64,000 bases of DNA, taken from the NCBI GenBank assembly GCA_946413265.1, contig CAMKJU010000007.1:296-64295 (forward strand), written 5' to 3'. The position numbers and the translations under genes were made by a program. The stretch is from an uncultured Lentisphaerota bacterium (lineage in GTDB: Bacteria; Verrucomicrobiota; Kiritimatiellia; RFP12; UBA1067). Positions 1 to 60,004 of the stretch are shown piece after piece. The first letter of the stretch is position 1, and every line of letters starts with the position of its first letter. Below the pieces are notes generated by a model that saw only the letters and a list, made by a program, of their open reading frames with translations, ran no database searches and was not told the origin of the DNA.

Positions 1-670
1 CTTTCACCCTGCACACAATAATGTAGAGATGACTGCGATTGCCCTTCAGCAGGTCGTCCGCAACATGCTGCGCGTCCTCTCCGTCGAGGACAGCGCGGAC
101 GAACACATCCCTGTCGCGGTCGCTAACGCCATATTCGCCGCAGACAAGGTCCACCATCTCCCGGACGGCCTGGCGGCGGATCTTCTCGCTCAGGCGCTCG
201 ATCGGCGATTGGGCGTCCTGGTTCCGGACCTCCTCCCTCGCCACCAGGTACTGGGTCTGACGCCGGATGTTACGCAGACGCTCCGCGCGGTGGCGCTCGC
301 CGAGCGTACGGTCGGCAAGCGTCGCCGAGTATGCGTCGCGCAGCTCCTTGTGCGTATTGCCGGCCCACGCCCACTTTGCCTCGCGCTCGTTCCTGTGGCT
401 CAGAAAAGAACGCGCGTGCATCTGGACAAACCCGACCCACTGGGCCTCCGTCTTAGGTTCAAGCTCCTCCTCAAGGCGATGGTCGGGGTCAAGCCCTGCA
501 ATCTTTATGACCGCACTCTGAACGGCGTCTTCGCAATCCTGCCTGTTACCCGACCGCCAAAGCGAGTTGACGATCTTGGGGCCGTGCTTCCGAAGGAGCG
601 TGCCCCATTCCCCGAGCGTGGGGATGTACGCGATGCTGTCGCTTGCTGCGTGTGTATGCTTGCTTGTCAT
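1..670 (-). CDS. sigma-70 family (ECF-like) sigma factor-like protein; 3' end runs off the window start
   Basis: Not in the ORF track because the window edge truncates it. My translation from the ATG at 668-670 is open to position 1. It reads MTSKHTHAASDSIAYIPTLGEWGTLLRKHGPKIVNSLWRSGNRQDCEDAVQSAVIKIAG (region-2-like) and ends VSDRDRDVFVRAVLDGEDAQHVADDLLKGNRSHLYIIVCRVK (region-4 HTH-like). Track ORF 29..748 (+) is its antisense shadow. Confidence 0.5.
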   Translation of the reverse strand, partial: MTSKHTHAASDSIAYIPTLGEWGTLLRKHGPKIVNSLWRSGNRQDCEDAVQSAVIKIAGLDPDHRLEEELEPKTEAQWVGFVQMHARSFLSHRNEREAKWAWAGNTHKELRDAYSATLADRTLGERHRAERLRNIRRQTQYLVAREEVRNQDAQSPIERLSEKIRRQAVREMVDLVCGEYGVSDRDRDVFVRAVLDGEDAQHVADDLLKGNRSHLYIIVCRVK

Positions 671-810
671 AGTGATCCTTTGTGGTTAGATGTTCATTTC
701 TATATGCGGACGCAAAAAATTGATTGGCCGGGCAGTTTTACGGACTAATGGAAAAGTTTTTTCCTGATAGAAAGAATTTCTGCTCCTCACTTGCCTGCTA
801 TCATCTTTTT

Positions 811-819
811 TGATACAAT
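811..819 (+). promoter_or_regulatory. extended -10 promoter candidate (TGATACAAT) for the rtcR-like gene
   Basis: TGnTAnAAT-type element. It would place a TSS near 826, so the 840-941 hairpin would lie in the 5' UTR. The same motif class recurs upstream of many genes in this window. Confidence 0.35.
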
Positions 820-839
820 ACCAACCGCAAACCCTTTTC

Positions 840-941
840 TTGCTTTCGCTATTGGGAGGTTAGGAGATTGGGAGACTTGGAGAAAATCTTCAAAAAGGCT
901 CACTAACTCCAAGACTCCGAAACTCCAAATAGCGAAAGCAA
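840..941 (+). repeat. about 100-nt imperfect hairpin element, copy 1 (GGAG/CTCC periodic arms)
   Basis: 5' arm TTGCTTTCGCTATTGGGAGGTTAGGAGATTGGGAGACTTGGAG. 3' arm CTCCAAGACTCCGAAACTCCAAATAGCGAAAGCAA. A second copy sits at 5684-5776 in the same orientation relative to local transcription. Confidence 0.8.
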
Positions 942-993
942 TGAACGTGCGTCAATGGTAGAGAGGTTTTGCAATTGCATCAGGAGACAACTC

Positions 994-2889
994 ATGGAAA
1001 AGAAGTCTATCAAGAAAAACATTCTAATCTCTTATTTCGGATACGAGCATGACCAGCTTGAATACAAGATGCAAGACAGGACATTCCTCGCCTCGTTCGG
1101 AAAAGACGCCAAGGCGAAGGGGTATCTCTCGCGCCTGAGTCCGAAAGACATCAAACGGACTGACATCTGGCGGCCTTCTGTCGCGCTCGCTTCCTACCCT
1201 GATCTGAAGTTCGACGATTACTATCTCCTCTACAGCGGCCTCAGGGGCCCCATGCGGAGAACCTTTGACGAGGTCGTAGAAGACATCAAGGCCCTACGGC
1301 CCAAGGTGAACCTGCACATAGAGGAGATGGCATTCAAATCGCCTTGGGACATGGTGAGCGTGTTCACGAACCTGTATAAGTTTGCCGAAGCCCATGCATC
1401 GGAATTCAGTGCAGAAGGTACCATGTGTTATGTGAACTGCAACCACGGCACAATGCAGATCAGAGAATCCCTTTTCATGCTCAGCCAGGAAGGCAAGATA
1501 CCCGGCATGCGAATATTGCCGTCCCCATGGCACGACAATACAAAACGCGACTATCGAACCCCGGTGGGAAGCTATGCGAAGGACGATCCGTCGGACTTCA
1601 ATGAAGCCTATCGCAAGTTGTCAATAGCCACGAAAAGGCAGGCTAAGAACAACGGGCTCATGGAGGGAATCTTCGTCGACAAGAGCAACACGGAATTCTT
1701 GGAGCTCCTCAACCAGATATTCTTCGTGGCGCAAAGAACAAAGGAACCGATACTCTTCACAGGCCCCACAGGTAGCGGGAAGTCGAACCTCGCCAGGAAC
1801 ATAGCAAAAACAAAGGGATTGAAAGACAAATTCGTATCCGTCAACTGCGCGACATTGGGTGGTGACCCGGGAATCATCAAAAGCGAGCTATTTGGCCACG
1901 ACAGGGGCGACTTCACGGGCGCGATCAGCACGTGCGACGGAAAACTGCAACAGGCCAACGGGGGGATTCTCTTCCTCGACGAGATTGCCGAGCTTCCCCT
2001 CGACTCCCAGGCGATGCTCCTGACGGCCATCGAAACCAAGAAGTTTAGGCGTCCGCATTCGACGGTGGACATACAATGCGACTTCATGCTCATCTGCGGC
2101 ACCAACAAGGATCTGTGGGAAGAAGTCAAGGCCAAGCGGTTCCGCCTGGATCTGCTGGAACGCATCAATACCTGGCATTTCCACCTCCCCGGCCTCGCGG
2201 AAAAAGAACGCCCCGGCTATGCCGCAAGACGGAAAGACATCGCCCTCAATTGCCAGCAAGTATTGAGTGAGTACAATAAAAAGTATTCCTCGCATCTTGA
2301 ATTTGCAAACGACGCATTACAACGTTTCATCGAATATGCAGAAGCCGACACCACCGAGTGGAAAGGCAACTTCCGGGAGTTCAACGCCATGATCTTCAGG
2401 ATGGCGACATTCGCAAACGGTCTTCAGATTGAGCTGAAAGGCGTCGAAAAGGAAATCGAACGCACCGAGTTTGAACTAAAATCATACAAGACCGACAGCA
2501 ACGTTACGGCAATAGCGACCGATGCCCCTCCTGCGGCAACGAAACAAGAGGAATTTCCAACCGCGTCGCAAACCATTAATACGCCCGACCCAACCTCTCC
2601 CCTTCCCGACGCATCCTGCAAATTCGAGTTCCTGCGCGAACTGCTTGGCGAGAAGTACGCCGAGCTCCGCCTGGACGAACTCGCCCAACTTGCCTTCGTC
2701 GCCTCGGTCTGCGCGGACGCGAAGAACCAGGCGGACGCCAGCCGGCGCCTCCGCATCAACCAGAGTGACGCAAAGGACGGTTCCCCACAGCTCTTCAAGT
2801 ACCTGTACCATTTGGGTTTGAACTTCGACAAGGTCAAGTCCTTTGCGCGCGGGTTCAAGCCCTCTGATTCGTCTCAAGTGCGCAGATAG
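994..2889 (+). CDS. rtcR: RtcR-family sigma-54-dependent transcriptional regulator (CARF-like N-domain + AAA+ + C-terminal HTH)
   Basis: AGGAGA RBS 7 nt before the ATG at 994. The N-domain matches the E. coli RtcR pattern (WRPSV..., SPWDMVSVF, NCNHGTMQI). AAA+ Walker A GPTGSGKS, Walker B GGILFLDEI, sigma-54 contact loop GDFTGA (nt 1906-1923). The C-terminal segments WKGNFREFNAMIFRMATFA and ...LFKYLYHLGLNFDKV parallel RtcR WRGNFRELSASVTRMATFA and ...LRKYLARFGLTWEAV. Confidence 0.75.
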   Translation: MEKKSIKKNILISYFGYEHDQLEYKMQDRTFLASFGKDAKAKGYLSRLSPKDIKRTDIWRPSVALASYPDLKFDDYYLLYSGLRGPMRRTFDEVVEDIKALRPKVNLHIEEMAFKSPWDMVSVFTNLYKFAEAHASEFSAEGTMCYVNCNHGTMQIRESLFMLSQEGKIPGMRILPSPWHDNTKRDYRTPVGSYAKDDPSDFNEAYRKLSIATKRQAKNNGLMEGIFVDKSNTEFLELLNQIFFVAQRTKEPILFTGPTGSGKSNLARNIAKTKGLKDKFVSVNCATLGGDPGIIKSELFGHDRGDFTGAISTCDGKLQQANGGILFLDEIAELPLDSQAMLLTAIETKKFRRPHSTVDIQCDFMLICGTNKDLWEEVKAKRFRLDLLERINTWHFHLPGLAEKERPGYAARRKDIALNCQQVLSEYNKKYSSHLEFANDALQRFIEYAEADTTEWKGNFREFNAMIFRMATFANGLQIELKGVEKEIERTEFELKSYKTDSNVTAIATDAPPAATKQEEFPTASQTINTPDPTSPLPDASCKFEFLRELLGEKYAELRLDELAQLAFVASVCADAKNQADASRRLRINQSDAKDGSPQLFKYLYHLGLNFDKVKSFARGFKPSDSSQVRR

Positions 2890-4517
2890 TAGCGCGCGTC
2901 GCCCTTCGATGTTGCACCGAATGGGTGATAGAGTGCCGGACGGAGGCGGGGCAACACATCCGCCAGACATTCATCCGCCGCATGCAGCACCTCCTCAATC
3001 TGCGTCCCGCGTCGGTACTTGTTCGAGGCCTCGTTGTAGCCGAAGTAATCCATCAGCATGGCCAATTCGCCCGGCTTCGGTTCACGACCGTCCGCCGAGA
3101 GCCGGAGGAGTACCATTCCCCGCAGGAGCTCTATGGCAAGCCGCCGGTGCGACAGCGTGTGCCGCCAAATCTGGTCGACGCATACACGCAGATTGACCGA
3201 AAGGGCCGGAACCACCCGGTCGCCGTCACGCAGGAAACAGGAAATCGCCGTCACCCGATCAAGGCTCGTGCCGAAGCCCTTGTTGAGATGGATGGCACAG
3301 GGGGCGGGAACGCCGTCCCAGCAGACCGCATGCGCCGCCTCACGGAAGCGCGCAAGCGCGTCGTAGATGCCTCCGAACTCAGCGTAATACGATTTCTCCT
3401 CGTTCTCGGCCCGCTCAAGGCGCTCGAGCTTACGCGCGAACTTCAGAGGTGCGACCCTCGCCGCACGCCGGAACTCGCTTTTCCGCGCCGCACGATCATT
3501 TTTCTCACGCGCATCCATCCGACGAAGCGTCTCCTTCAGCGTCTGTTCAATCGCCTCCGTGCCGTCCGTCAGCGCCAACCAGCACCCCTGCTGCCACCGG
3601 AAGGCGTTGCGTGGGGGCGCCACGCGCTCGAAGAGGTAGCTCGAATTCGCGCTCTGCACGATGTTGCAGGCCGCCTTCCCGGGGGCGCGACGCAGACCGC
3701 GTCCGCACATCTGGATTGTCGGCAGACGCGAGGCGTCGCGCGCGAAGATGCTTGATACGTCGGGCTGGTCGAATCCCTCCGTGAGCATCGCCACGTTCGC
3801 GACCACCTGCACGCGGCCGCTCGCAAAGGCATCGATCTGGCTCTCCTTGTCGCTCTCGCCCGTCACCACCTCGCACGCCACGCCGCCTGCGGCGAGGCGT
3901 TCGCGAAACGCCACACATTCGGCAATCGTCGAGAAGAACACGAGGCTTTTCCCCCAGCGCTTGGGGTCCGCCAGGTAGAAATCCGCAGCCGTGGCCACGC
4001 TGTAGTTCGGAATGACGTATGTATTGAACGGGCTAAGGTACCCTTCCCGCACGAGGCGGCCGATGGAACACGTGCGCACCGTCTCCTGGAAGGAGAGCTT
4101 CATGCGGTCCGTCCGCATGGGCGTGGCCGAGAGGCCGATCGTCCACCTGGCGCGCATCCGCTCGTAGAGGAGCACGCAGCTCTGTGTCGCCTCATGGTGG
4201 GCCTCGTCGAGGACGACGAGATCCACCTCCGGCGGTACCTTCTCGAAAAGCGAGACGGGGCGGATGTTATCCTGGTAGAGGTCCCGGTTCGCCTCCATCA
4301 TCTGGCGCAGCAGATGATGGCGCGGCGCCACCCAGCCGACCTTGATTGGACGCCCCAGATGCTCCTGGAAACGATGGATCACCTCCAGGGCCATGTACGT
4401 CTTACCCGAGCCGACAGGCGATTCAAGCAGGACGGAGGTGCGTCCCCGTTCCGCGAACGCGGCCAGCGCCTCCTTGATAGCCTCCTGCTGGTAGGGTCTC
4501 TCTTCGTAACGCGTCAC
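2874..4517 (-). CDS. SF2 DEAD/DEAH-box helicase (ResIII + helicase C) with a C-terminal extension of about 230 aa of unknown function
   Basis: GTG start 1 nt after the stop of the upstream gene (TAAgGTG). Motif I SPVGSGKT, motif II VLDEAHH, motif III GLSATP, motif VI QMCGRGLRR. The N-terminal 51 codons of track ORF 2874..4670 are R/S/T-rich overlap and were discarded. Confidence 0.8.
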   Translation of the reverse strand: MTRYEERPYQQEAIKEALAAFAERGRTSVLLESPVGSGKTYMALEVIHRFQEHLGRPIKVGWVAPRHHLLRQMMEANRDLYQDNIRPVSLFEKVPPEVDLVVLDEAHHEATQSCVLLYERMRARWTIGLSATPMRTDRMKLSFQETVRTCSIGRLVREGYLSPFNTYVIPNYSVATAADFYLADPKRWGKSLVFFSTIAECVAFRERLAAGGVACEVVTGESDKESQIDAFASGRVQVVANVAMLTEGFDQPDVSSIFARDASRLPTIQMCGRGLRRAPGKAACNIVQSANSSYLFERVAPPRNAFRWQQGCWLALTDGTEAIEQTLKETLRRMDAREKNDRAARKSEFRRAARVAPLKFARKLERLERAENEEKSYYAEFGGIYDALARFREAAHAVCWDGVPAPCAIHLNKGFGTSLDRVTAISCFLRDGDRVVPALSVNLRVCVDQIWRHTLSHRRLAIELLRGMVLLRLSADGREPKPGELAMLMDYFGYNEASNKYRRGTQIEEVLHAADECLADVLPRLRPALYHPFGATSKGDARYYLRT

Positions 4518-4518
4518 C

Positions 4519-5604
4519 TTACGCGGCCTCCTGCGAGAAGTTGATGCCGCCGAGGTAGAAGTTGCTGGTCCGGACCGCGTTCGGATAGAGGTCCTCGAGG
4601 TCGAAGTCCTTGGACAGCACCGTCCCCGCGAAGGAATGGAGCGTGGATTCGGGCTTGAGCAGCTCCGCATGGTGCGAGGCGAGCTCCGAGGCGAAGTTGA
4701 GGAGGTCGGCCACGCTGCACCCCACGGGCAGGAGCGGACGCTTCTTCTGTCCGATGTTCGTGAGGTCCGTCACGCCGTAGCGTACGCACGGGTTATCGGC
4801 GATTTCGTTCAGCCGCTCGCGGAGGAGCATCTGGTTGCGCGTGTTCGCCACCGAACGGCGGATCAGCCCATCCAGCAGCAAGACCTCGCCCACCGACGCC
4901 TTCGTGCCGGCCGCGGTGCACATGCGTTCCTGCAGCATCTCGACGCCGGACGGGTTGCTGAAGGACGCCAGCAGGCGACGGAAATGCTCGCCGCTGTTGT
5001 CCTTGATTTCCATCTTCGTGCGGAACAGCGGCGCCTCCGCCACTGCGCCGTTCGAGCAAATCTGCCGCCATGTGGCGAGACTCATGTCGGGCATGCCCAC
5101 GCCGTCCACGGGTACGCGACAACGCACGCGCACGTGGTAGGTGCTGTCGTTCGGCACGTCCCACGGGTCGTCGAGGTCGAGCATCGCGCTCAGCATGCCG
5201 TTGCCATATTCGACCTCCTGCAGGCGGCGGTCCTCGTGCAGGACGCCCTCAATGAATTTCACGGGCATGGGCAGGCCCTTGTCCTGCGTCAGACCCAGTG
5301 CCTGGTTCCGTTCCGTATCGACCGTCACGCGGAGCGCCAGATCGGACTCCTTCTCGGCCGCGCGCGTCATCACCTCTAGCGGTGTGAAGAACCCGAACAC
5401 GCCAAAGGGAATCCCCAGTTCGGCGGCAAGGGTCTTGTAGAACCGGTCGCTCAGTTTGTAAGTTGTCTGCCCGATAGAAAGACCTTTAATCTTCTCATCG
5501 TCGCAGTCCAGAGCCTCCACCATACGGCGAGGCGTAATGGGAATCGGCTCAAAACGATCGCCGATTCGCGAATTCATGTCGATTTTTTCTGTTTTTACTG
5601 CCAT
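4519..5604 (-). CDS. DUF932-like (phage/plasmid-like) protein
   Basis: ATG at 5604 with GGAG upstream; the track ORF begins at a TTG at 5655. The segment HVRVRCRVPVDGVGMPDMSLATWRQICSNGAV resembles the DUF932 core (R-x-[IV]-C-x-N-G) as I recall it. Translationally coupled to the helicase. Confidence 0.45.
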   Translation of the reverse strand: MAVKTEKIDMNSRIGDRFEPIPITPRRMVEALDCDDEKIKGLSIGQTTYKLSDRFYKTLAAELGIPFGVFGFFTPLEVMTRAAEKESDLALRVTVDTERNQALGLTQDKGLPMPVKFIEGVLHEDRRLQEVEYGNGMLSAMLDLDDPWDVPNDSTYHVRVRCRVPVDGVGMPDMSLATWRQICSNGAVAEAPLFRTKMEIKDNSGEHFRRLLASFSNPSGVEMLQERMCTAAGTKASVGEVLLLDGLIRRSVANTRNQMLLRERLNEIADNPCVRYGVTDLTNIGQKKRPLLPVGCSVADLLNFASELASHHAELLKPESTLHSFAGTVLSKDFDLEDLYPNAVRTSNFYLGGINFSQEAA

Positions 5605-5683
5605 GGCTTTATAATCTCCATAAACAGAAACCGTATGCACAGCACTATCTTTCAAGTTTTCTGAATTTTTTTGAATAAGTTTA

Positions 5684-5776
5684 TTGCTTTCGCTATTGGG
5701 AGTTTTGGAGTCTTGGAGTTTTCTTTAAATACTCTCCTTAACTCCGAAACTCCTAATCTCCCAATAGCGAAAGCAA
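5684..5776 (-). repeat. about 95-nt imperfect hairpin element, copy 2
   Basis: On the minus strand it reads TTGCTTTCGCTATTGGGAGATTAGGAGTTTCGGAGTT...AACTCCAAGACTCCAAAACTCCCAATAGCGAAAGCAA. It is collinear with copy 1 and lies between the sigma-54-like gene and the DUF932-like gene. Confidence 0.8.
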
Positions 5777-5797
5777 GAAAGGTTTTGTAACTGGTTC

Positions 5798-6559
5798 TTA
5801 GGTGAAAACGCTGGCCAAAGGTAGCGAAGCATATCCCCATGACAGACGACAATTCTGGCAATAGGCGTGGATATTCCCCGTGTCTGCCTTTTTCGACGTT
5901 TCTGCCTTCTTAGAACGAAAGTTGGCGCAGAAATCTGACGTAACAAAGCCCGTCTGCGTCATTGTTTTGTGATTCTCTCTAAACGCCGCCGGACTTTCAA
6001 GGGCCTCATCCCCTTCACTCTGCAGCCACTTCGCCACAGCCTCGTAGAACGCAAACTGCTTGCGAACGGCTTCAAGAATCTTGTGTGCCTCCGAATCAAA
6101 ACCATTTGGGCGATATCCCAACAGCGGGTTGCGGGGCGGAATACACGCCCATCGCCCCGATGCCGTCTCGACAATCCTGATCTCGTAGCCACGCAGAATG
6201 GAATCTAGCGGTGATGCCTCCTCGCCGTTCGGTGCCGCATACGCGCCAGAAGAATCGTCCTCATCCCGGATTTCGTCGTCATCAATGAAATCCACCTCCG
6301 AGTCGTAATCCTCCTCGGCAGCATCCGCAATTTCAGTAAAAACTTCTTCTTCCACGTCAGTCTCGACAACGATCTGGAAACTGGCGATCATCGCCTGCAA
6401 AATCTGTACTTGAGTGGCACAATCCGCGCGCAAAAACGTCGATGCCTGTATCCGTGTGGACAGTTCGACCTTGGCTTCCAGCTCATGTCTGGTGGAGACG
6501 TCCATTCGATTGGACTGCTGCATGATTGTCGCCATCTGCAATCCATAACCTAAAGCCAT
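5798..6559 (-). CDS. acidic 253-aa protein, possible divergent or truncated sigma-54 (RpoN)-like factor
   Basis: ATG 2 nt after the RNAP stop (TGActATG). Q/L-rich N-terminus, an acidic tract EEEVFTEIADAAEEDYDSEVDFIDDDEIRDEDD, then segments that by eye parallel sigma-54 region III up to but not including the RpoN box. The upstream part of track ORF 5798..6745 overlaps the RNAP gene and was discarded. Confidence 0.55.
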   Translation of the reverse strand: MALGYGLQMATIMQQSNRMDVSTRHELEAKVELSTRIQASTFLRADCATQVQILQAMIASFQIVVETDVEEEVFTEIADAAEEDYDSEVDFIDDDEIRDEDDSSGAYAAPNGEEASPLDSILRGYEIRIVETASGRWACIPPRNPLLGYRPNGFDSEAHKILEAVRKQFAFYEAVAKWLQSEGDEALESPAAFRENHKTMTQTGFVTSDFCANFRSKKAETSKKADTGNIHAYCQNCRLSWGYASLPLASVFT

Positions 6560-6561
6560 AG

Positions 6562-9500
6562 TCACTCTCCCACTGCGAAACTGTTGAACATCACCTGCGC
6601 CGACGGCGAGGACAGCGGGATGTCCCGCATTTCGCCACTCAGTAATTTCAAGATCGTCTCCTTGTTTGCACGGCGCGCGACCGATTCCATGTCCTTGCCT
6701 TCGTCCACTTTCTTCAACGCGCCGTTGAGGGATTTTGTCCCGCAATCAGCGAGAACGCGCCACAAGAGCTGGACATGCCGCGGATCCAGATCACGGTACG
6801 GAGTTATCGCGCCGTCCTCCCCGCACAGACATTTGTAGAATTCATCGTATGTTTTAGCCTTCTTACCGCTCAGGATGAGCGCGCGCACGAACTCGATGTC
6901 CACTTGGCTCTTCCCCGCATGGGCGCTCTTCATCGAAAGTTGCGTGCCGCGTTCGCCGATCGACTGCGCGGCGATCAATCCCGCCGGATACCCAACTTCT
7001 GGCAAAGTGCCGTCCGACAAAGCCCCGTAGCACGCCGCGCAGATGCCAGTTTCGCAACCACAGTTGAGTATCGAACGCTTGCCGCCATCCGGTGTCTTGC
7101 ACTTCTTGCACGTAATCGTCACTGGACGCAGGGCATAGACAAGACAACGCGTGAGATCGCCCGCCTTGCCGGTGTTGAGCTTCTTGTCGCACATCGAAGC
7201 GCGAGCGTTGAACGACGACCAGAAGATGTCCTCCCACGACATGCCGCCGACGAGCGAGCCCTGAATATCGAATTTCCGTTTCACCTCTTCGGACGGCACA
7301 AACCCCAGCTTGCCGGTCGCAAGTAGACCGCGAGGATTCGTGAACTGTTTGATCTGCTTTGCACCATTTGCCCCTGAGTTGACCATATCCGCCGCGAAAC
7401 CGTTTTTCCCGTCATACACCACAAGGTCGTAGTAACCGAACGAGACGCCCTCTTCCGTACATTTCGCGAACGCCGCACGCGCATCCTTCAAGACGGATTC
7501 GGCTTCGCCCTGTTTACAATGCTCTTCCAATCGCTTCTTCGCGGCACCGGAATCGCGCGCGCAGACGAGATATGCGCCCATCACGAAGTCTCGGTCGTAA
7601 TTCGGGGTGATCTGTCCGTTCCCCGCCGAAAAGAGATTCGCGGACGGCGCCAGACGCGGCAGCGCCTCCTGTGCAGCGTCGGAAAGCGGCAGGTAACCAG
7701 CCATCTCGTCGCCGTCAAAATCGGCCCCGAACCCCTTGCATGAAAGCGGCTGCAAACGGAATACCTCGCCGTCTGCGGGCTTCAGGACCTTTACCTTGAA
7801 GGTCTGCATGCTGTATTTGTGAAGAGACGGCTGACGGTTCATGAGCATCCAAAGCGGATGTTTTTCCAGGTACTCCTTCAGCGCATCCCATTTCTCTGTG
7901 AGCCGTTTTTTCGAGCTTTCCTTAGGCGAGCGCCAGCCGAACCCCGCTGCCGTCACACCATGCGCCGTCACACGCAGGTCCACGCTCTGTGGCTTCCCTT
8001 CGACCTTGATCCGCTCATCGGTGACGCGGTCCGCCAGAAGCTCCCAGAGGATGGACGCCGGAACGCCGACCTCGTCGAACGCGAGATCCGGCCCCGGCGT
8101 GATCACCATACGACACGAACGGTCCACGCGCCGCCCTAGTCCCTCCCGCCTCACGAGCCCGTGTTTCCCGCAGCACGCATCACGCAAAACCTGAAACACG
8201 GTCGCGACAGCCTTCTCGATCTGCGTCAACGCCTTCGCCTTGTCTTCTTCCTTCGCCTTGGCATACCGGTCGCACGCGGCGACAATCTCCCCGTACCCGA
8301 ACGGATCTACCTCGCCTTCGTATCCCACGCGGTACCTGATCGGCAGGACGGGGACGTAGCGCAACTTCGGCTGGTCGTGCAAGTTCTTGCCCGTCAATGC
8401 TTTCGCGGGATAGTCGATCGGCTCCGGCAATTCGATCACGCCCCACTTTTCTTCTTCAGCGCACACGAATGCCTCGTTAAGCGAACCGAACATCGCCGGA
8501 TCGCACACGCCTCCTTCGGCCATCTCGTTTTGCTCATTTGCAGCCTTGAGAAGGAACCGCTCGCCCGGCTTACTCGCACTACACAATTCGCACGGACACA
8601 GCACGAGCGCGTCTCCGATGCTTTCCGCCTGCTTGTCCGACGTCTTGAGGCACATCCTCCGAAGTACCTCGCCCGCATTCACCTTCCTTTTGATGAAACA
8701 ACGCACATCGCCCACGCCGTCAATGCCAAGTGCAGAAGTCTTCACCTCCAACGACAAAGTTGTGGCCGAGCCCCCTTTTGTTCCCCAAATCGGCAGTACC
8801 TCTAGGCAATCCTCCCGACTGGGACAACGGGCGTCTCGCCCGTTGCAGGCACCCGAAACGCGCATCCAATAATTGCCATTGCTTTCTTCCAGCGGTCCCT
8901 TGATCGTTACGCCAAAAAGTGACAGCAACGACGCAAGGCTCAGCGTATTCCGCTTGTCGCCCCCATTCCACGTAAAACGCATTCCACCGAACGCAAGCCG
9001 TGCGGAATCCTTCGGACAGCGGAACTGTGCCGAATGGACCGCCACCGCAGACGCCTTTCCGATTGTCCGACCCTTGCGATCCTGTTCCTCCTTGAGGCCA
9101 ATCCGTTTGAGCAGTTCGTTATCCGACATCCGCGAAAACGACACTGTCTTCTTTTTCGCGTTGACATCCATCCTGATCAGCATGGCCGCAAGATAGGCGG
9201 ACAGGACTTGGGAAAATCCAGTCTGGTCGAGTGCGGGCTTGCCCGTCCCCTTGACGGCGACGGCATCGGAGTTGCGAAGAAGGTCCGCGATGATCGGTTC
9301 CGATCCGGGATAGGCCGAAAGCGCCCACATTTCCATTTCGCCCACGCGCTGTCCGCCGCCAATGAGCCGCCCGTGCGCGGCCTGTCCCGTGGCGCAGGAA
9401 TACAATGCGTCCTTCCCGCCACGACGCGCCTGCGCTTTCAACGCGGGGATGTGGTGGAGGCGGAAGAAATGCTGGTACCCCACCACGACGGGCGATGCCG

Positions 9501-11523
9501 TTGTAACCTTGCGTCCGTCGGGCAGCGTCCAGTGCAGATATGCCTTGCCATATTCGTCGAGTCCCGTCTCTTTGAGCAGACGCTGGACCTTCTCGTGGTC
9601 GAGCGCGCCGCAACATGGCGCACCCGCCGGTCCGGACGCCCCGTCCTTCAGCACGTCCGCATCTGTCTTTCCGTTGTGGAACAACCATCCCAAATGAGTC
9701 TCCAGCAGCTGACCGGGGTTCATGCGCGAGAGGACGCCATGCGGGTTCAAGAGAATGTCAACCGTCACTGTCATGCCATCGGGAAGCTTCAGTTTCGGCA
9801 TTTCCTTCGCAGGCAACACCTTGGAGACGACGCCCTTGTTGCCGTGGCGTCCCATCAACTTGTCACCCGGCTCTAGGGCGAACGTGCGCGCAATGCGGTA
9901 CTCCAGGCGGCCTACGAATCCCGGATCGCGGTTGAGCGGCTTCTCCTTGATTTCAGGCGGGTATTCAATCTGCACGAGCTTCGCGGGGGCGGCGTCGAAA
10001 TACCGGATCGTATGGGTCTGTTCCTTGCCGTTCGCAATCTTCTTGAATTCCGCAATGGCCGTACCCTCACGCAGAGGTGCCCCCGCCGAGAGGATTTTGG
10101 TACACGTCCAGCCCGGATCAATGTCGAGCGCGTAGTCCTTCTCTTCAGTAACGGCCATTTCTTTCACGATTGCGTCGCTCACCACGACCGCGTCGTCGAG
10201 GTTCCAGCCATACCAGGGGATGTACGCGACAAGCAGGTCGCGACCGATCTTCAGCTCGCCGCCGTCCGAGCATGTCGGACACAACCCCGCGCGCTCCAGC
10301 GGGCGCATGAATTCAACAAGCCCCTCTTCGCCGCCAGACATCACGCGCGGCGCTTCCGCCCCGCTCACGGGCACGCCCTGGCGCATGTTCTTCGCGCCCA
10401 TCATGCTGCGCGCGTCGTCGTTGTGGTTCAGGAACGGAATCAGCGACGTGCACCAGCTCACAGGCGGCCGCGATGGTAGGGCCGCCTCGCCGAGGCGGCC
10501 GCTCTTCGCATTAATCTGTCCCTTCGCATCCACCCACGCCCCACGCGCGAGTTGTAGTTGGATGCCCACCATCTCGGACTCGGGGCTCTCGATCGGGCAG
10601 ATTCGTCCTTCAAACGAGGGATGGTTCTGCCGGAATTCGGCGGGCAGGAACCCAACGTGGCTTCGGCTCATCTTGAAGCGCTTGATGCCGCAGATGCGTC
10701 CAGCCGCCTCAAGAATGTTGTCCGGACGGATGACGTCAAACCCGTTGAATCGCCGTTCACCGATCGACGAAATAGGCACAAGCTCCGCAGCCAAATCACT
10801 CCAGCTATCTCGCGTTCCATTCTTCAAGACAAAGAAACGATAGTAGAGTCGAAGAAGGCGATTGCGCAGCCAAACCGGAAACGTCACCGCCATGCGGTGG
10901 TCCAAGTCATCGGCATCAAATGTTTCTATCTTGTCCTGATTCGCCTGCGCCCATTCCTTCAGATCCAAGTTCAGATCTTGCAGCGATGTGGCAAGGCCGC
11001 CCCGGCCTTGCAGCAAGGGCGAGGGCGCCCTTGCCACACCGGGCTTTCCAACCACCTCATTTGCCCACCAATGGGCGAAGGCTATTTCGTACCGGTCAGA
11101 CTTTGAGAGCTTTTCGTCACCGATGCGGATGAAGCGTCCGTCCGGCAACCCCAGACGAAGCTCCAGCTCCTTGCCATTGGGCACGCGCACCTTGCGCAGA
11201 CCCGGCATCTCGCCGAGCCAGGAGCTCCAGACAAGACGCTGGGGCGCGTCCTTGTTTTCGGCGCCGGCGCCGCGCGTCACGAATATGCCATGGTACGGGA
11301 GGGGAATGTCAAACTCTTGCGTGTCGCCGTCCGTAAAGGATATGCAGAACCGCCCCGTGAGGTCCAAGTTCTTCGCATACGCGAATTTCGCATCTTCAGC
11401 AGCGGGGAGGATGAGACTGACCTCATCCACCTCCGACGACACATTCCTGACGCATTCCGTAGCAGAGTTATTCCACGATTCAAGCGTCTCCGCATCGTCG
11501 TCTTTGAACATCAGCCAATTCAT
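6562..11523 (-). CDS. single-chain fused beta-beta' multisubunit-type RNA polymerase (compact, 1653 aa)
   Basis: Beta motifs: GRICPIESPESEMVG, SLIPFLNHNDDARSMMGAKNMRQGVP, GDKLMGRHGNKGVVSK, VDILLNPHGVLSRMNPGQLLETHLG, GGGQRVGEMEMWAL. These are followed by beta' motifs: GRRVDRSCRMVITPGP, NRQPSLHKYSMQ, catalytic GADFDGDEMA (nt 7699-7728), and AAQSIGERGTQLSMKSAH. ATG at 11523; the track uses a TTG at 11529. Confidence 0.9.
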   Translation of the reverse strand: MNWLMFKDDDAETLESWNNSATECVRNVSSEVDEVSLILPAAEDAKFAYAKNLDLTGRFCISFTDGDTQEFDIPLPYHGIFVTRGAGAENKDAPQRLVWSSWLGEMPGLRKVRVPNGKELELRLGLPDGRFIRIGDEKLSKSDRYEIAFAHWWANEVVGKPGVARAPSPLLQGRGGLATSLQDLNLDLKEWAQANQDKIETFDADDLDHRMAVTFPVWLRNRLLRLYYRFFVLKNGTRDSWSDLAAELVPISSIGERRFNGFDVIRPDNILEAAGRICGIKRFKMSRSHVGFLPAEFRQNHPSFEGRICPIESPESEMVGIQLQLARGAWVDAKGQINAKSGRLGEAALPSRPPVSWCTSLIPFLNHNDDARSMMGAKNMRQGVPVSGAEAPRVMSGGEEGLVEFMRPLERAGLCPTCSDGGELKIGRDLLVAYIPWYGWNLDDAVVVSDAIVKEMAVTEEKDYALDIDPGWTCTKILSAGAPLREGTAIAEFKKIANGKEQTHTIRYFDAAPAKLVQIEYPPEIKEKPLNRDPGFVGRLEYRIARTFALEPGDKLMGRHGNKGVVSKVLPAKEMPKLKLPDGMTVTVDILLNPHGVLSRMNPGQLLETHLGWLFHNGKTDADVLKDGASGPAGAPCCGALDHEKVQRLLKETGLDEYGKAYLHWTLPDGRKVTTASPVVVGYQHFFRLHHIPALKAQARRGGKDALYSCATGQAAHGRLIGGGQRVGEMEMWALSAYPGSEPIIADLLRNSDAVAVKGTGKPALDQTGFSQVLSAYLAAMLIRMDVNAKKKTVSFSRMSDNELLKRIGLKEEQDRKGRTIGKASAVAVHSAQFRCPKDSARLAFGGMRFTWNGGDKRNTLSLASLLSLFGVTIKGPLEESNGNYWMRVSGACNGRDARCPSREDCLEVLPIWGTKGGSATTLSLEVKTSALGIDGVGDVRCFIKRKVNAGEVLRRMCLKTSDKQAESIGDALVLCPCELCSASKPGERFLLKAANEQNEMAEGGVCDPAMFGSLNEAFVCAEEEKWGVIELPEPIDYPAKALTGKNLHDQPKLRYVPVLPIRYRVGYEGEVDPFGYGEIVAACDRYAKAKEEDKAKALTQIEKAVATVFQVLRDACCGKHGLVRREGLGRRVDRSCRMVITPGPDLAFDEVGVPASILWELLADRVTDERIKVEGKPQSVDLRVTAHGVTAAGFGWRSPKESSKKRLTEKWDALKEYLEKHPLWMLMNRQPSLHKYSMQTFKVKVLKPADGEVFRLQPLSCKGFGADFDGDEMAGYLPLSDAAQEALPRLAPSANLFSAGNGQITPNYDRDFVMGAYLVCARDSGAAKKRLEEHCKQGEAESVLKDARAAFAKCTEEGVSFGYYDLVVYDGKNGFAADMVNSGANGAKQIKQFTNPRGLLATGKLGFVPSEEVKRKFDIQGSLVGGMSWEDIFWSSFNARASMCDKKLNTGKAGDLTRCLVYALRPVTITCKKCKTPDGGKRSILNCGCETGICAACYGALSDGTLPEVGYPAGLIAAQSIGERGTQLSMKSAHAGKSQVDIEFVRALILSGKKAKTYDEFYKCLCGEDGAITPYRDLDPRHVQLLWRVLADCGTKSLNGALKKVDEGKDMESVARRANKETILKLLSGEMRDIPLSSPSAQVMFNSFAVGE

Positions 11524-11525
11524 GA

Positions 11526-12776
11526 TCAAATCCGTGTCAGCAGTTGGAGCGAACCTACTATTGCACCGAGAACGAAGCCCAGCACCTGGACGGCACAGAG
11601 ATTTTCGGACATGAACTCGTCAAGCGTCTGGTGAAATGTCGCGATGGACATGCCGTCAACAGCTTCCGTGACGCGCTGTTCAAGCCGGAGCTTGTCAAGA
11701 ATCGCCTGCTTGTTCTCGCCGATGAGCTGGGCGACCTTCACGCCGACCTTTGGCAGCACTCCCTTCTCAAGCTTTTCGCGCAGCATGTCAGAGGCGAATG
11801 CACGGTCGATGAGCACGGGAACATTCTCGCGGAGATACGTAGCAATGTAACGCTTGCCGCGCACCCTCATCTCACGGATAATTCCGCCCATCACCTTCTG
11901 TCCCTCTTCGCCTTTCATCCACAGAGTGAGCTGGTCCGCGTATGCGAGAAGCTTCTCCCTCAACATCGTCTGAGTTGCCTCGCGCACCAGCCATCCGTCC
12001 AGCTTGGCCTTCATGCTCTCATAATCGGCAAAGTTTTCCATGACATAGTCCGTAATCGCATTCGCGCCTATGCCAAACGGGATCTTCTCGTTCAGTTTCT
12101 GCCGTAGGAAGGTGCGCAATTCACCGCGCACCTCCTCGATGATTCCGCCCGCGTTTTCACGAAGTGCCTCAACCAGCTTTTCAACTATGAACCGCCGGGA
12201 TCCCTCGCTTTTGATTCGCGGCAGGATTCCCTCGTTCCATATCTTCGACCAGGTATCATCCGTTGCCAGACTGTCAATGACGGCAAGGACCTGACGTTCC
12301 ACGTACGGCGACACGAACTCGACGATCTCGGCTTCATGCTCAACAAGATACCGTTGAATCCAGTCGCGGAGCTGAGTCATCCGCCGCGTGTCGTTCACAA
12401 ACGCCAGCACCTCACCCTTCATCTCCTCGACGAGCGCATCAGGATTCAGAAGTTTCTTCCCGACCATGTTGCCGAGCGAGACGGCCATTTCGCGTTTCTG
12501 CCTCGGGATAATCCCCTGGATGCGTCCGCCAAGATGTGGCTCGTACGGTCTGAACAGATACCAAAGCGCCAGCCAGTTCGTAATGTATCCGACGGCTCCC
12601 GCAAGCAATATCGGCATAAACCAGCCAAGATACCGGTCAATACCCGCCGCCGTCTCCACAGAAATCAGCAGCCGCGCCACCACATATACGACCTCCAGGC
12701 CCAGCACTATCCAGCTGAACCGGTTAAAAAACCTATCCCATGTTTTCCACGCATCCATTTTACTTTTCGTCTTCAT
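11526..12776 (-). CDS. DUF445/UPF0754-family membrane protein
   Basis: GAVGYITNWLALWYLFRPYEPHLGGRIQGIIPRQKREMAVSLGNMV matches the YheB/UPF0754 signature as I recall it. There are N- and C-terminal TM segments. The stop TGA lies 2 nt before the RNAP ATG. The start was chosen at MKTKSK with an AGAGGAAG RBS. Confidence 0.65.
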   Translation of the reverse strand: MKTKSKMDAWKTWDRFFNRFSWIVLGLEVVYVVARLLISVETAAGIDRYLGWFMPILLAGAVGYITNWLALWYLFRPYEPHLGGRIQGIIPRQKREMAVSLGNMVGKKLLNPDALVEEMKGEVLAFVNDTRRMTQLRDWIQRYLVEHEAEIVEFVSPYVERQVLAVIDSLATDDTWSKIWNEGILPRIKSEGSRRFIVEKLVEALRENAGGIIEEVRGELRTFLRQKLNEKIPFGIGANAITDYVMENFADYESMKAKLDGWLVREATQTMLREKLLAYADQLTLWMKGEEGQKVMGGIIREMRVRGKRYIATYLRENVPVLIDRAFASDMLREKLEKGVLPKVGVKVAQLIGENKQAILDKLRLEQRVTEAVDGMSIATFHQTLDEFMSENLCAVQVLGFVLGAIVGSLQLLTRI

Positions 12777-12817
12777 GTTCTTCCTCTTGTGCCACCTTGC
12801 CAAAGCGCAACGCCGAC

Positions 12818-12826
12818 AGTATAGCA
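12818..12826 (-). promoter_or_regulatory. extended -10 promoter candidate (TGCTATACT) for the DUF445-RNAP operon
   Basis: Minus strand TTTTGCTATACT, about 35 nt upstream of the ATG at 12776. The same motif precedes aroE and the DJ-1 gene. Confidence 0.4.
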
Positions 12827-12868
12827 AAAATCGGCTGGCTCATGGGGAGTTTTTCGGCCCGGAAATCT

Positions 12869-13048
12869 TTATGTCCATCCTAGGATTTCCGACAAAGTCG
12901 TAATGCCATAACGCGACTTCAGTTGCGTCCGTACCTTTTCCAGTGCCTTCTTCTCAATCTGCCGCACCCGCTCGCGGGATATACCCAACAATTCAGCGGT
13001 TTCACTCAACGTGTGCGTCACACCATATCCAGTCTTGCTTTCACCCAT
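12869..13048 (-). CDS. stand-alone sigma-70 region-4 (HTH) miniprotein, 59 aa
   Basis: Not in the track (59 aa). AGGAAG RBS before the ATG at 13048. Translation: MGESKTGYGVTHTLSETAELLGISRERVRQIEKKALEKVRTQLKSRYGITTLSEILGWT. The core LSETAELLGISRERVRQIEKKALEKVR is a near-consensus sigma-70 region 4.2. Confidence 0.6.
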   Translation of the reverse strand: MGESKTGYGVTHTLSETAELLGISRERVRQIEKKALEKVRTQLKSRYGITTLSEILGWT

Positions 13049-13284: not shown

Positions 13285-13938
13285 TCACAGCATGCGCAAA
13301 AACGCTTCGCGGCTTGACATCGCCTCTTCCAATTTTCCGGTCCTGCAGAGCGAGACGTAAAACGCCGCAGCAGCAGCCTGGCAGTTGATCTGTCTGTTCG
13401 GATTGAACTCGATGTCAGTGAATGCGTCGAATTCCCTCAGCTCCTCGGCCAGCTTCGGATTGGCGAGCAGCGCCTTGATGTAGAGATGATAGAAGAATGC
13501 CGTCTTCGGCTCGAGATCCCACCGGACTCCATCAAGTTCGAAGGCGAGAAGGCGATGTCCGGCGGACGCTTCCTGGACATGGTGGCCATGGTGGCGGACT
13601 TCACGCGAATCGTGGGAGTAGAGTTCCGGGAACGGGCCAACCCCGCCGTCGAACACCTTGCTCGCCTGAAACACCGACTCCACGGAGCACTCGACTCCGC
13701 CGTGCGGAAACTTCAGGTTGAAGGCGCTCAAACTCACGCCGAGCGGCTGCAGCGACTTGCTTGAAATCTCAAGCACCTTCGCCGACGGATCGATCCTGTG
13801 GATGGCGTCGTGCAGGGCAACGACGTTTTTCTGCTTCTGCGAAAAAGCGAATCCAGGATGCCAAGTGAACTCAGGAGACTCCACGGTCCTGTATCCGACA
13901 TATCTCTCCAACGGTCTGTAACAAGGTCTTTTCGCCAT
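13285..13938 (-). CDS. conserved-looking hypothetical protein (217 aa), function unknown
   Basis: AAGGAA RBS before the ATG at 13938. Non-repetitive sequence with motifs FTWHPGFAFSQKQKNVVALH, SVESVFQASKVF and FTDIEFNPNRQINCQAAAA. I cannot assign a family. Confidence 0.6.
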   Translation of the reverse strand: MAKRPCYRPLERYVGYRTVESPEFTWHPGFAFSQKQKNVVALHDAIHRIDPSAKVLEISSKSLQPLGVSLSAFNLKFPHGGVECSVESVFQASKVFDGGVGPFPELYSHDSREVRHHGHHVQEASAGHRLLAFELDGVRWDLEPKTAFFYHLYIKALLANPKLAEELREFDAFTDIEFNPNRQINCQAAAAAFYVSLCRTGKLEEAMSSREAFLRML

Positions 13939-13992
13939 ACTGTTTTCCTTTCTTTTGTTGTTTGTTCTTGTTGCCTCTGTCAATATTAAACA

Positions 13993-14459
13993 TCAAGGTG
14001 TCGTATTTCTTTCACAGGCGTTGAACATCTGCCAGAGGTTGTTCGCGAGCTGCATGAGCAGGTAGAAGTTCCTGCTGCACCGCCAGTGGTTGCAGAACAC
14101 GTGCTCAAGCCCGTAGTCGTTGTTCTTCTCGACGTCGAAGCTCGACTCAACGTTCCACCTGCGCCGCCCCCATTCCACGACCTCCGACGCCACCTCCGGG
14201 CAGCCGACGTCGTAGTTCGTGGCGAACATCCCGCGGCATGTCCCCCCTTCGTCTCCTCGCAGGCGACGACGTTGAACTCCTCGCCTTCGGACTGGGTCGT
14301 GAACTTCACTCCGCCCGTCCACGCCACGACGCCGGTCTCGGTCTTCCGCTGGTTCTCGCCCCTCGCGACGAGAGGCCCGCAGCAGCCCTTCGAGACCTCC
14401 ATCGAGTCGCACGCCATCTCGTACGCGTCCGGGGAGCGTCCCTCCTTCGGGGAAGTCAA
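13993..14459 (-). pseudogene. IS4/IS701-type DDE transposase remnant (C-terminal fragment, frameshifted)
   Basis: ...EVVEWGRRRWNVESSFDVEKNNDYGLEHVFCNHWRCSRNFYLLMQLANNLWQMF is a typical DDE_Tnp C-terminus. The upstream part continues in another frame (track ORFs 13993..14412 and 13986..14459). No N-terminal half and no inverted repeats were seen. Confidence 0.6.
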
Positions 14460-14923: not shown

Positions 14924-15355
14924 ATGCCAAGGGTCTCGACTCTTCATGCATCTGACATGTTGATGGATGACGACAGCAAGATTCTGGAAGAGCTACGGGA
15001 ACGCCCCGGCACGGGGGCGAAACTGCTCGTCGATGCATACGGACGCCGCCTTTACGCAGCGGCGATGCGTCTATGCCGCAACGAGTCCGATGCGGAGGAT
15101 CTCGTCGCGCGCACGCTCGCGCGCGCAATCCAAAGCATCGGTTCGTTCAAGGGCGAATCGGCGTTCTTCACCTGGTTGTGCTCGATCCTGGCAAACTTCT
15201 TCAAAATGGACCTGCGCAGGAAAGGCGCCAATTCCCTTGGGTTTCCCGACGAGCTGCCGGAGGTGGCTGACGAAAGGCCCTCTCCGGAAAAGAACGTATC
15301 GCGAAGGGCGGCTACGAAGTTCTTGGCGAAGGCGTGTACGGCGGATGGTATTTGA
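14924..15355 (+). CDS. ECF-type sigma factor, region 2 only (no recognisable region 4)
   Basis: DAEDLVARTLARAIQSIGSFKGESAFFTWLCSILANFFKMDLRRK is an ECF sigma-2 signature. The ORF stops at 143 aa without a region-4 HTH in any frame. Confidence 0.6.
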   Translation: MPRVSTLHASDMLMDDDSKILEELRERPGTGAKLLVDAYGRRLYAAAMRLCRNESDAEDLVARTLARAIQSIGSFKGESAFFTWLCSILANFFKMDLRRKGANSLGFPDELPEVADERPSPEKNVSRRAATKFLAKACTADGI

Positions 15356-15406
15356 CACAGGCAGAAACAATTTCAAGTCAATCAGTCAAAGAAAAGTGAG
15401 GCAGTC

Positions 15407-56015: not shown

Positions 56016-56021
56016 GGTTCC

Positions 56022-56030
56022 ATTATACCA
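56022..56030 (-). promoter_or_regulatory. extended -10 (TGGTATAAT) 6 nt before the GTG start (leaderless candidate)
   Basis: Minus strand TTGTGGTATAATggaaccGTG. Confidence 0.4.
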
Positions 56031-56251
56031 CAATCTTCGGATTGGAGACCATACCAGAATTCAAGAGTTATTTCCGTTACGTTTCTCGAACGGAGAAAAG
56101 CCGACATCCTCCACGAATGTGGCACACCCGCGCCGAGCAGGTTTTTCGTGCCTGGCGAAGCGCCGCCGGCCGTCGGGTTCGTCTTGCCTGCTTAGGTTAC
56201 TCGCCCATACCGCTTAACGGCCACTGCAGGCAAGGGGAAAATCGACCCACA

Positions 56252-56412
56252 GTATGGACAACTGCCCGTCCCCGTGTGGACAGGATGCGTTTGGCGTATG
56301 GACAGGATGTGTTTTGCGTATGGACAGGCGGCGGAAATGGCTCCATTTCTTTTTTAAATGGGCCCATTTCAAGATGAAATGGGCCCATTACTATTATATA
56401 ATGGAGCCATTT
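56252..56412. repeat. 21-22-bp periodic array: about 4 direct repeats GT[AG]TGGACAGG... followed by 4 palindromes AATGG-NN-CCATT
   Basis: Direct repeats start at 56252, 56274, 56296 and 56318. Palindromes at 56335-56348, 56356-56369, 56377-56390 and 56399-56412. Confidence 0.85.
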
Positions 56413-59009: not shown

Positions 59010-59020
59010 TGCTTTCTCCT

Positions 59021-59968: not shown

Positions 59969-60004
59969 TGCCTCTTCTCAATAAGGGTAGCGCAGCCCTG
60001 AGGC

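Follow-up and report, generated by a model that had tools for sequence, protein, structure and literature searches.

A compact single-chain RNA polymerase linked to a sigma-54-like factor and an AAA+ activator in a Kiritimatiellia genomic island

The first ~13-14 kb of a 64,000-nt stretch of DNA from an uncultured Lentisphaerota bacterium of the class Kiritimatiellia (contig CAMKJU010000007.1 of assembly GCA_946413265.1; the whole stretch is hereafter called the window) form an island in which genes for an RNA polymerase (RNAP), a sigma-54-like factor and a bacterial enhancer-binding protein (bEBP) lie together. The bEBP is of the RtcR type, 644 amino acids (aa) long and encoded on the plus strand (955-2889; recognised by Pfam, NCBIfam and PADLOC). 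On the minus strand lie a fused, shortened beta-beta' RNAP of 1653 aa (6562-11523; Pfam Rpb2 and Rpb1 models and catalytic motifs) and an acidic sigma-54-like factor of 253 aa (5798-6559; AlphaFold/Foldseek, hhalign and its position after the RNAP gene). Domains were called by comparing the window proteins with the Pfam, NCBIfam, PHROGs and PADLOC profiles. An earlier note, made from the letters of this DNA alone, had proposed these open reading frames (ORFs) together with the minus-strand junctions TAAgGTG (4515-4521), TGActATG (6557-6564) and TGAtcATG (11521-11528), all of which are present in the sequence, and its identification of an RtcR-family AAA+ protein with a GDFTGA loop, of a fused polymerase and of a small sigma-54-like protein is borne out by the analyses that follow.

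Along its single chain, the 1653-aa protein matches the Pfam models Rpb2_3 (residues 295-327, E = 1.6e-05), Rpb2_6 (539-719, E = 2.7e-39), Rpb2_7 (723-758, E = 7.5e-07), Rpb1_2 (1130-1286, E = 1.9e-26) and Rpb1_5 (1427-1537, E = 6.6e-15). It carries the motifs GRHGNKG, GGQRVGEMEMWAL, ADFDGDEM and GERGTQLSMKSAH, which are conserved in its family, and the beta lysines, the beta' NADFDGD motif, the bridge helix and the trigger loop of a two-barrel enzyme are all found in this one protein. Across the family, GDKL..RHG.KG, GGQR.GEME.WAL, DFDGD and GERGTQ are invariant; indeed, about 120 positions, every catalytic motif included, do not vary in 17 members whose identity goes down to 26%. The family profile aligns with residues 428-848 and 1026-1339 of Escherichia coli beta and 229-516 and 622-943 of beta' only. 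The first ~430 residues of E. coli beta are cut to about 180, and the flap/beta-i9 region (beta 848-1026), SI3 and most of beta' beyond residue 943 have almost no counterpart. Because such large segments of beta and beta' are absent while the catalytic motifs are intact, the protein is, as judged from its sequence, apparently a minimal but catalytically complete beta-beta' fusion.

This fusion does not behave as a pair of full-length, separate beta and beta' subunits, being a single chain that scores below all family cutoffs of NCBIfam: 229-238 bits for rpoB (cutoffs 801-896), 197 for rpoC (cutoff 963) and 287 for the fused rpoBC model (cutoff 4632), with the best NCBIfam matches at 2e-85. The family to which it belongs comprises about 65 clusters at 90% identity, with lengths of roughly 1350-1930 aa. 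All of the named clusters are labelled hypothetical, and their taxon names are limited to Kiritimatiellae and unclassified 'bacterium'. In the family search, ordinary rpoB and rpoBC proteins trail as a separate, weaker set at no more than 300 bits. Since the scores are far below the cutoffs, segments are missing, the distribution is sporadic and the chromosomal neighbours are variable, the compact RNAP is indirectly indicated not to be the housekeeping enzyme. We consider it very improbable that the ORF is the organism's housekeeping polymerase or, alternatively, a decaying relic. The housekeeping assignment is opposed by the same scores and sporadic occurrence, and by the much weaker, separate set formed by the ordinary rpoB of related phyla. 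As to decay, there are hints of some at the right edge of the island (a sigma fragment, a possible remnant of an insertion sequence (IS) and an orphan antitoxin gene), but the core ORFs are all intact and tightly coupled, and the invariant positions have been kept over the whole range of divergence of the 17 members.

The 253-aa protein is laid out, in its AlphaFold model (29 homologues; pLDDT 69.5, pTM 0.61), as an N-terminal helical hairpin, an acidic linker, a beta-hairpin and an ELH-HTH-like C-terminal domain. When this model was compared with 350,542 PDB chains by Foldseek, sigma-54/SigN chains of RNAP-sigma-54 complexes accounted for 17 of the 19 matches, including the top 16, and the top 16 matches were again sigma-54 for a second model, built from a 339-aa homologue that is only 17% identical to the window protein (pLDDT 58.5). 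Profile comparison by hhalign with a purpose-built sigma-54 alignment from nine species matched residues 154-253 to residues 322-409 of E. coli sigma-54 at P = 4e-4, while the C-terminal half taken by itself gave P = 6.5e-5 with a probability of 64%. The ELH-HTH module, which reads the -12 element, is thus recognised by both hhalign and Foldseek. The beta-hairpin YEIRIVETASGRW is collinear with PDVLVRKHNGHW of sigma-54 in a sub-alignment that is not significant alone, and the arginine of the ...STISR... helix of sigma-54 is replaced in the window clade in the hhalign alignment. The protein ends near residue ~405 of E. coli sigma-54, at the start of the linker to the RpoN domain, and the RpoN box, which reads the -24 element, is absent from it; in relatives of ~335 aa the chain continues into a further helical stretch, which is modelled at low confidence. 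No significant hhalign match to sigma-54 was obtained with the N-terminal 70 residues, no signal emerged from hhalign against the single E. coli RpoN sequence, and no structural analogue of the factor was found in the viral structure library. Since neither an RpoN box nor a Region I/core-binding domain is demonstrable, these models and alignments indicate that the protein should best be termed sigma-54-like and not be counted in the RpoN family.

The window activator is composed of a CARF-like sensor, a sigma-54-interaction AAA+ domain, an AAA lid and a C-terminal region. In Pfam it matches Sigma54_activat (PF00158; 2.2e-42), RtcR/CARF (PF06956; 5.1e-18) and AAA_lid_14, and the PADLOC profile RtcR--CARF_AAA_HTH recognises it at 2e-112, its N-terminal part being CARF-like as in RtcR. 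It scores 386 bits with the NCBIfam equivalog RNA_repair_RtcR, below the cutoff of 650, and no gene of the island codes for RtcA or RtcB according to Pfam, in agreement with the absence of rtcBA reported in the earlier note. In the canonical system, the GAFTGA-type loop of the activator contacts sigma-54. The L1 loop found here, GDFTGA, is a one-residue variant of it that keeps F, T and G. Besides, PF00158 is present in every RNAP-associated AAA+ protein, and about 20 of the 27 aligned activators keep a loop of this type (GAYTGG, GAFTGA, GAFTDA, GAYTDA, GSWTGA, GNYTGV or GDFTGA). Their N-terminal domains differ, some being of the CARF/RtcR type and others ~200-aa domains of another kind, and short forms stop at the AAA lid without a DNA-binding domain. 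Varied N-termini on a constant AAA+ core are as expected for interchangeable sensors.

The gene set recurs in dozens of metagenomic loci. A metagenome scan with the family-specific RNAP motif GLGRRVDRS.R.VITP.P as query added 38 usable loci, and all loci were annotated with profiles built from the window proteins before being counted. The sigma-like gene comes directly after the RNAP gene in 39 of the 40 informative loci (at least 800 nt downstream of the RNAP gene), the sole exception having a fragmented RNAP gene, and its start often abuts or overlaps the RNAP stop codon, as exemplified by the window junction TGActATG. A Sigma54_activat AAA+ gene lies near the RNAP/sigma-like pair in 23 of the 29 loci with at least 3 kb downstream, over a range of RNAP identity of about 30-93%. 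In six contigs of distant family members read individually (P0051, P0052, P0080, P0019, P0042 and P0028; RNAP identity 30-74%), the gene immediately after that of the RNAP encodes a product of 240-350 aa in which Pfam recognises no domain, and the pair is adjoined by a Sigma54_activat AAA+ gene. Homologues of the sigma-like protein are all in RNAP context wherever the contig is long enough to tell. The neighbourhood survey that the earlier note had called for thus shows that homologues of the RNAP do share a context, and the conserved core consists of the RNAP, sigma-like and activator genes only.

These linkage data bear on a different assignment of the parts, in which the sigma-54-like factor and the activator would act on the host RNAP while the fused RNAP would be a separate effector without promoter-specific initiation, for example one that, like YonO or QDE-1, makes RNA on damaged or foreign DNA. 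Such an assignment would suit a compact enzyme from which the flap and a large part of the beta' C-terminus, both used by canonical sigmas, are missing, as well as a system for which no promoter motif was found and in which some islands (L008, L105) contain full-length sigma-70-family genes. However, it is to the RNAP gene that the sigma-like gene is tied most tightly, often down to overlapping stop and start codons, its homologues stay with that gene, and no canonical core-binding domain, through which sigma-54 binds the host core RNAP, is detectable in the factor. Altogether, we regard an action of the factor on the host enzyme as quite unlikely.

Upstream of the DUF445-RNAP-sigma operon, an extended -10 promoter-like element, GATTTTTGCTATACTGTCGGCG, lies on the minus strand at 12811-12832. 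A nearly identical 20-mer is found upstream of the RNAP operon in L008 (~8476-8497), near-identical elements precede two genes in L091 (~1401-1422 and ~3404-3425), and in L001 the related TTGCTATAAT precedes an ordinary GreA-like gene. We infer that GATTTTTGCTATACTGTCGGCG is an extended -10 promoter of the host sigma-70 type, so that expression of the module would fall to the host RNAP. At these positions of the window, L008 and L091, the element TTTTTGCTATACTGTCGGCG is strongly conserved upstream of genes in Kiritimatiellae-type loci and is probably the extended -10 promoter plus start region of this lineage.

The island also contains two copies of a near-perfect palindrome of ~105 nt with an internal 8-nt GGAG periodicity, which came out of repeat analysis. 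Copy 1 (TTGCTTTCGCTATTGGGAG ... CTCCAAATAGCGAAAGCAA; 836-946) is located between a sigma-70-like promoter and the start codon of the activator gene, and copy 2 (5680-5780) between the sigma-like and DUF932-like genes. A 19-mer of the palindrome arm occurs four times in the window (0 expected), and the predicted RNA folds reach -45 kcal/mol (z = -5.7) for copy 1 and -50.8 kcal/mol (z = -9.5) for copy 2. The long hairpin that the earlier note had placed after the sigma-like gene is therefore real, but it is one of two copies and not a single element. Both copies appear to lie within transcribed regions, the first in the activator gene's 5' leader and the second in the spacer that separates the sigma-like from the DUF932-like gene. 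The palindrome has no match in Rfam. Among the fetched loci it is shared only by the near-identical relatives L093 and L094, while the GC-rich hairpins that other relatives carry at the position of copy 2 are unrelated to it. For this latter reason, a role as a conserved enhancer or promoter was rejected, and because of this restricted occurrence and the unrelated hairpins of the other relatives, we read the palindrome as a variable REP/terminator-like insert.

What the components are, that their catalytic and contact motifs are intact and that their linkage is conserved has been directly observed. On these grounds, we consider it rather probable that the three gene products (RNAP, sigma-54-like factor and AAA+ activator) make up a single activator-gated machine that is independent of the host core RNAP. 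That they work together is drawn by analogy with sigma-54 systems, and so are the succession of steps, the signal, the promoters and the targets, as follows. The host sigma-70 RNAP would express the module from ordinary extended -10 promoters. The small factor would bind the compact RNAP and keep it inactive, as a closed complex, at dedicated promoters. The sensor domain would then receive its signal, which for the CARF/RtcR type is probably an RNA-damage or nucleotide-derived ligand, and the AAA+ ring would hydrolyse ATP and, through its GA(F/Y)TG-type loop, remodel the factor so that the promoter opens. Transcription would result that does not depend on the host polymerase. Its most likely role, which is the weakest step of the proposal, would be the expression of linked genes for stress or conflict at times when the cell cannot rely on the host polymerase.

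Several observations weigh against such a machine or against parts of it. Six activators of the RtcR clade (L001, L008, L106, L107, L115 and L116) have no GAFTGA-type loop, replaced for instance by GAASGI or GFPNAN in AAA+ domains that look intact, which speaks against a uniform mechanism. In six loci, all from close relatives of the window, there is no activator within reach, and unrelated genes follow the RNAP/sigma-like pair in the three activator-less loci examined. The RNAP has no flap region and has lost the greater part of the beta lobes, which bears on how a sigma-54-like factor would dock on it. Pfam (31 sigma-like members at E <= 10, neither Sigma54_AID nor Sigma54_CBD being matched) and a PDB profile search are blind to the sigma-like protein, and each Foldseek E-value for its models is weak by itself (0.08 or worse). 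We attribute the latter to the flexible, multi-domain shape of the models, in which case the exclusivity of the sigma-54 matches and their replication would carry the weight. On the DNA side, canonical TGGCAC-N5-TTGC sigma-54 sites are not enriched in the window, their number across 46 loci is that of chance (79 observed, 78.8 expected), and a de novo search for intergenic k-mers returned no system-specific motif, only the housekeeping-type extended -10 element. Finally, regarding a role in defence, PADLOC recognises the activator only, plus weak matches to the helicase.

The remaining genes of the island are less widely shared. When judged against 45 other loci, the DUF445 gene, the NADAR gene and a sigma-70 region-4 miniprotein gene were seen in the window only, and the DUF932-like/helicase pair was limited to a Kiritimatiellae-type clade and to L001, whose RNAP is 38% identical to that of the window; the two genes are paired in L001, L008 and L093. 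The island-wide system envisaged in the earlier note is thereby reduced to its core, since DUF445 and the miniprotein are local and the DUF932-like and helicase genes clade-specific. The DUF445 membrane protein (11526-12776, minus strand; Pfam DUF445 2.4e-23), the superfamily 2 helicase and the miniprotein themselves were all confirmed by Pfam matches. The DUF445 gene is coupled to the RNAP gene by the TGAtcATG junction (11521-11528). Its ORF could be extended to a TTG at 12827, an unlikely start because it falls inside the promoter-like TTGCTATACT, and ATG 12776, which is preceded by AAGAGGAAG, is probably where translation begins. The helicase (2874-4517, minus strand; 547 aa) is of the ResIII/DEAH type (Pfam ResIII 9e-18, DEAD and Helicase_C; phrog_16 DNA helicase 1e-45) and has a GTG start one nucleotide past the preceding stop codon, in the junction TAAgGTG (4515-4521).

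That stop codon belongs to the gene for a 361-aa protein (4519-5604, minus strand) that we describe, via distant homologues, as a divergent member of the DUF932 superfamily. The window protein has no direct match in Pfam, NCBIfam, PHROGs or PADLOC. Within the 399 representative DUF932-like proteins collected by an exhaustive search, P0500 matches Pfam DUF932 (PF06067) with 25.7 bits (1.2e-5; cutoff 23) and P0425 reaches 19.9 bits with the same model (cutoff 23). The DUF932 label given in the earlier note thus survives for the wider family, and for the window protein it would hold by transitivity only. The ORF is extendable to TTG 5655 (378 aa), but ATG 5604 is the most likely start because the 307 close homologues are mostly 361 aa long.

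Two other calls of the earlier note, at either end of the island, were not confirmed by profile searches. The ORF at 2-670 (minus strand, divergent from the activator gene), formerly taken for an ECF-like sigma gene at 1-670, encodes the 223-aa N-terminal part of a conserved ~200-aa family and runs off the window; it has no Pfam match, a PDB profile search finds no sigma factor for it, and two of its relatives have sub-threshold Sigma70_r2 matches (E = 0.012 and 0.034). Relatives of this ORF lie near an RtcR-type activator in L001, L008 and L107, and L105, in which no activator was found, has two copies. On the right, the supposed IS4-type transposase remnant (13993-14412) has no Pfam match, though its sequence is transposase-like in look. 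The miniprotein (59 aa; 12869-13048, minus strand; Pfam Sigma70_r4 1.2e-12) was considered as a fresh remnant of the full-length sigma factor seen in L008, an origin that we rejected given an identity of only 45% to region 4 of that factor and no traces of regions 2 and 3 nearby. Just outside the island, a 143-aa ORF (14924-15410, plus strand) matches Sigma70_r2 only (5e-14), is overlapped by an ORF in another frame and has the look of an ECF sigma gene that was frameshifted or truncated; a gene for a 448-aa protein without Pfam match adjoins it.

A NADAR (DarT1-associated) antitoxin-type gene at the island's right edge (13285-13983, minus strand; Pfam NADAR-DarT1 6.2e-71) was not mentioned in the earlier note. 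No toxin gene of a DarT1-NADAR pair was recognised beside it, and since the neighbouring ORFs are without Pfam match, it appears from its surroundings to be an orphan antitoxin gene, which may give immunity to DNA ADP-ribosylation. Genes related to ADP-ribose (PARG, NUDIX) also occur beside the RNAP module in L001 and L010.

Elsewhere, the neighbours of the module are diverse. A TCAD9 gene (1557 aa) adjoins it in L009 (4664-9337), a ThiF protein with a JAB domain is encoded next to it in L005 (2556-4151), and an ORF beside it in L091 (4435-5643) resembles an HD-domain dGTPase, by eye only. Other neighbours across loci include NUDIX, PARG, PapZ_C and SRA domains, a Tle1-like lipase, a nucleoside hydrolase and sigma-70-family genes. 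These neighbours are suggestive of conflict or stress islands. Full-length sigma-70-family genes with regions 2, 3 and 4 are located in or beside the RNAP islands of L008 (18615-19946; 443 aa) and L105 (15208-16110; 300 aa); that the compact RNAP also uses sigma-70-type factors is a possibility. In L001 (19035-22098), two proteins are encoded ~3.6 kb from the activator gene, one of 723 aa that combines a GreA/GreB domain with an HTH_GRAD domain and one of 281 aa of the DksA/TraR zinc-finger type. Members of the GreA/GreB and DksA/TraR families bind the RNAP secondary channel, and these two genes may simply be housekeeping ones.

The module is chromosomal, because the window also codes for SMC and Mfd/TRCF and for the A subunit of a gyrase/topoisomerase IV, along with a GH127 protein, and because another member of the RNAP family sits in a 4.74-Mb contig. 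Another patch of the window, at 56000-60000, has a GC content of 0.47-0.53 (about 0.62 elsewhere), carries genes for a 735-aa protein with TPR and FGE-sulfatase domains and a 315-aa ORF without Pfam match, and may have been acquired horizontally too. As to the carrier of the island, the same three-part mechanism could belong to an integrated mobile element (an integrative and conjugative element, or a prophage-like or transposon-borne one) and transcribe the genes of that element, like the polymerases encoded by phages or killer plasmids, instead of serving the host in stress or defence. Consistent with such an origin, the GC content of the island is 54-60% against the 60-65% typical of the window, its flanking genes differ between loci, and it contains a gene of the DUF932 superfamily, a family typical of mobile elements, as well as the SF2 helicase, the orphan antitoxin-type gene and the possible transposase remnant. 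However, the RNAP family is absent from 2.9 million viral contigs of IMG/VR, scanned with the family-specific motif, and from 50,697 phage and 72,556 plasmid (PLSDB) records; the alignment of the sigma-like protein, too variable as a query, found nothing in the viral contigs either. Moreover, no integrase, relaxase, capsid or replication gene stands beside the core in the loci read, and there is no tRNA gene at the island. A mobile-element module is unlikely in our view.

Compared with canonical sigma-54/bEBP systems such as RtcR-rtcBA and PspF, the island shares the PF00158 activator with a GAFTGA-type loop, the CARF-AAA+-HTH architecture of RtcR, a factor with an ELH-HTH module and an acidic linker, and the expected logic of a complex that would stay closed until remodelling. 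It differs from them by an RNAP that is a single chain of 1653 aa instead of the host alpha2-beta-beta'-omega assembly, and by a factor of half the size with no detectable Region I/core-binding domain and no RpoN box. From canonical RtcR it departs by the lack of rtcBA, by TGGCAC-N5-TTGC sites that are no more frequent than by chance and by an activator under the RtcR equivalog cutoff. RtcR-like regulators outside rtc operons have been described by Makarova et al., who found them linked to restriction-modification systems (PMC4012209).

As to the polymerase, the RpoBC proteins of Helicobacter and Wolbachia, which provide the best NCBIfam matches (2e-85), also have beta and beta' in one chain and in the same order, but these are full-length (about 2840-2890 aa) housekeeping enzymes, in contrast to the 1653-aa accessory protein of the island. 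The accessory two-barrel RNAPs known so far (YonO, NCgl1702-like, killer-plasmid and jumbo-phage enzymes) are far more divergent or phage-borne (PMC2919709, PMC5467207, PMC7598289, PMC7824862), and we came across none described with a partner of the sigma-54 type. YonO of the SPbeta prophage and the NCgl1702-like RNAPs resemble the island enzyme in being accessory gene products that hold both barrels in one polypeptide (PMC5467207, PMC2919709); by description, however, their beta/beta' homology is barely detectable and no sigma-like partner is reported, whereas standard beta/beta' Pfam models match the island RNAP at 1e-26 to 1e-39 and a factor and an activator accompany it. The non-virion RNAPs of jumbo phages (phiKZ, AR9) are likewise reduced beta/beta'-type enzymes that work without host subunits and use a dedicated, non-standard promoter subunit (PMC7598289, PMC5449584), and an SF2 helicase co-varies with the polymerase in jumbo phages (PMC7824862). 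In contrast to the island enzyme, they consist of four or five polypeptides, are phage-borne and have no linkage to a sigma-54-like factor or AAA+ activator. The earlier note knew of no described system with this composition, and in the literature that we searched (including PMC2919709, PMC4012209, PMC7824862, PMC7159879 and PMC12839542) there was likewise no account of a compact beta-beta' RNAP whose gene is linked to those of a sigma-54-like factor and of a bEBP. What is new is the packaging, that is, a dedicated minimal RNAP with a truncated factor; the sigma-54-like parts and their logic are known.

To conclude, we tentatively propose that several bacterial lineages may carry an autonomous minimal RNAP with its own reduced sigma-54-like factor, switched by its own sensor-ATPase. 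To our knowledge, no bacterial sigma factor other than sigma-54 requires an ATPase, and sigma-54 is known solely as a partner of the housekeeping core. If our proposal is true, the module would be the first accessory, host-polymerase-independent system of the sigma-54 type. It would show which parts of the polymerase and of the sigma factor are truly needed for activator-dependent initiation, and would add to the two-barrel polymerases a branch much closer to the cellular enzymes than YonO and the phage polymerases. Besides, such a compact three-gene switch would constitute a natural, ATP-gated, orthogonal expression device. For the bacteria that carry it, it could keep selected genes expressible during a block of the host polymerase, such as one imposed by an attacking phage, which raises the idea that some genomic islands may insure expression against host-polymerase shut-off.

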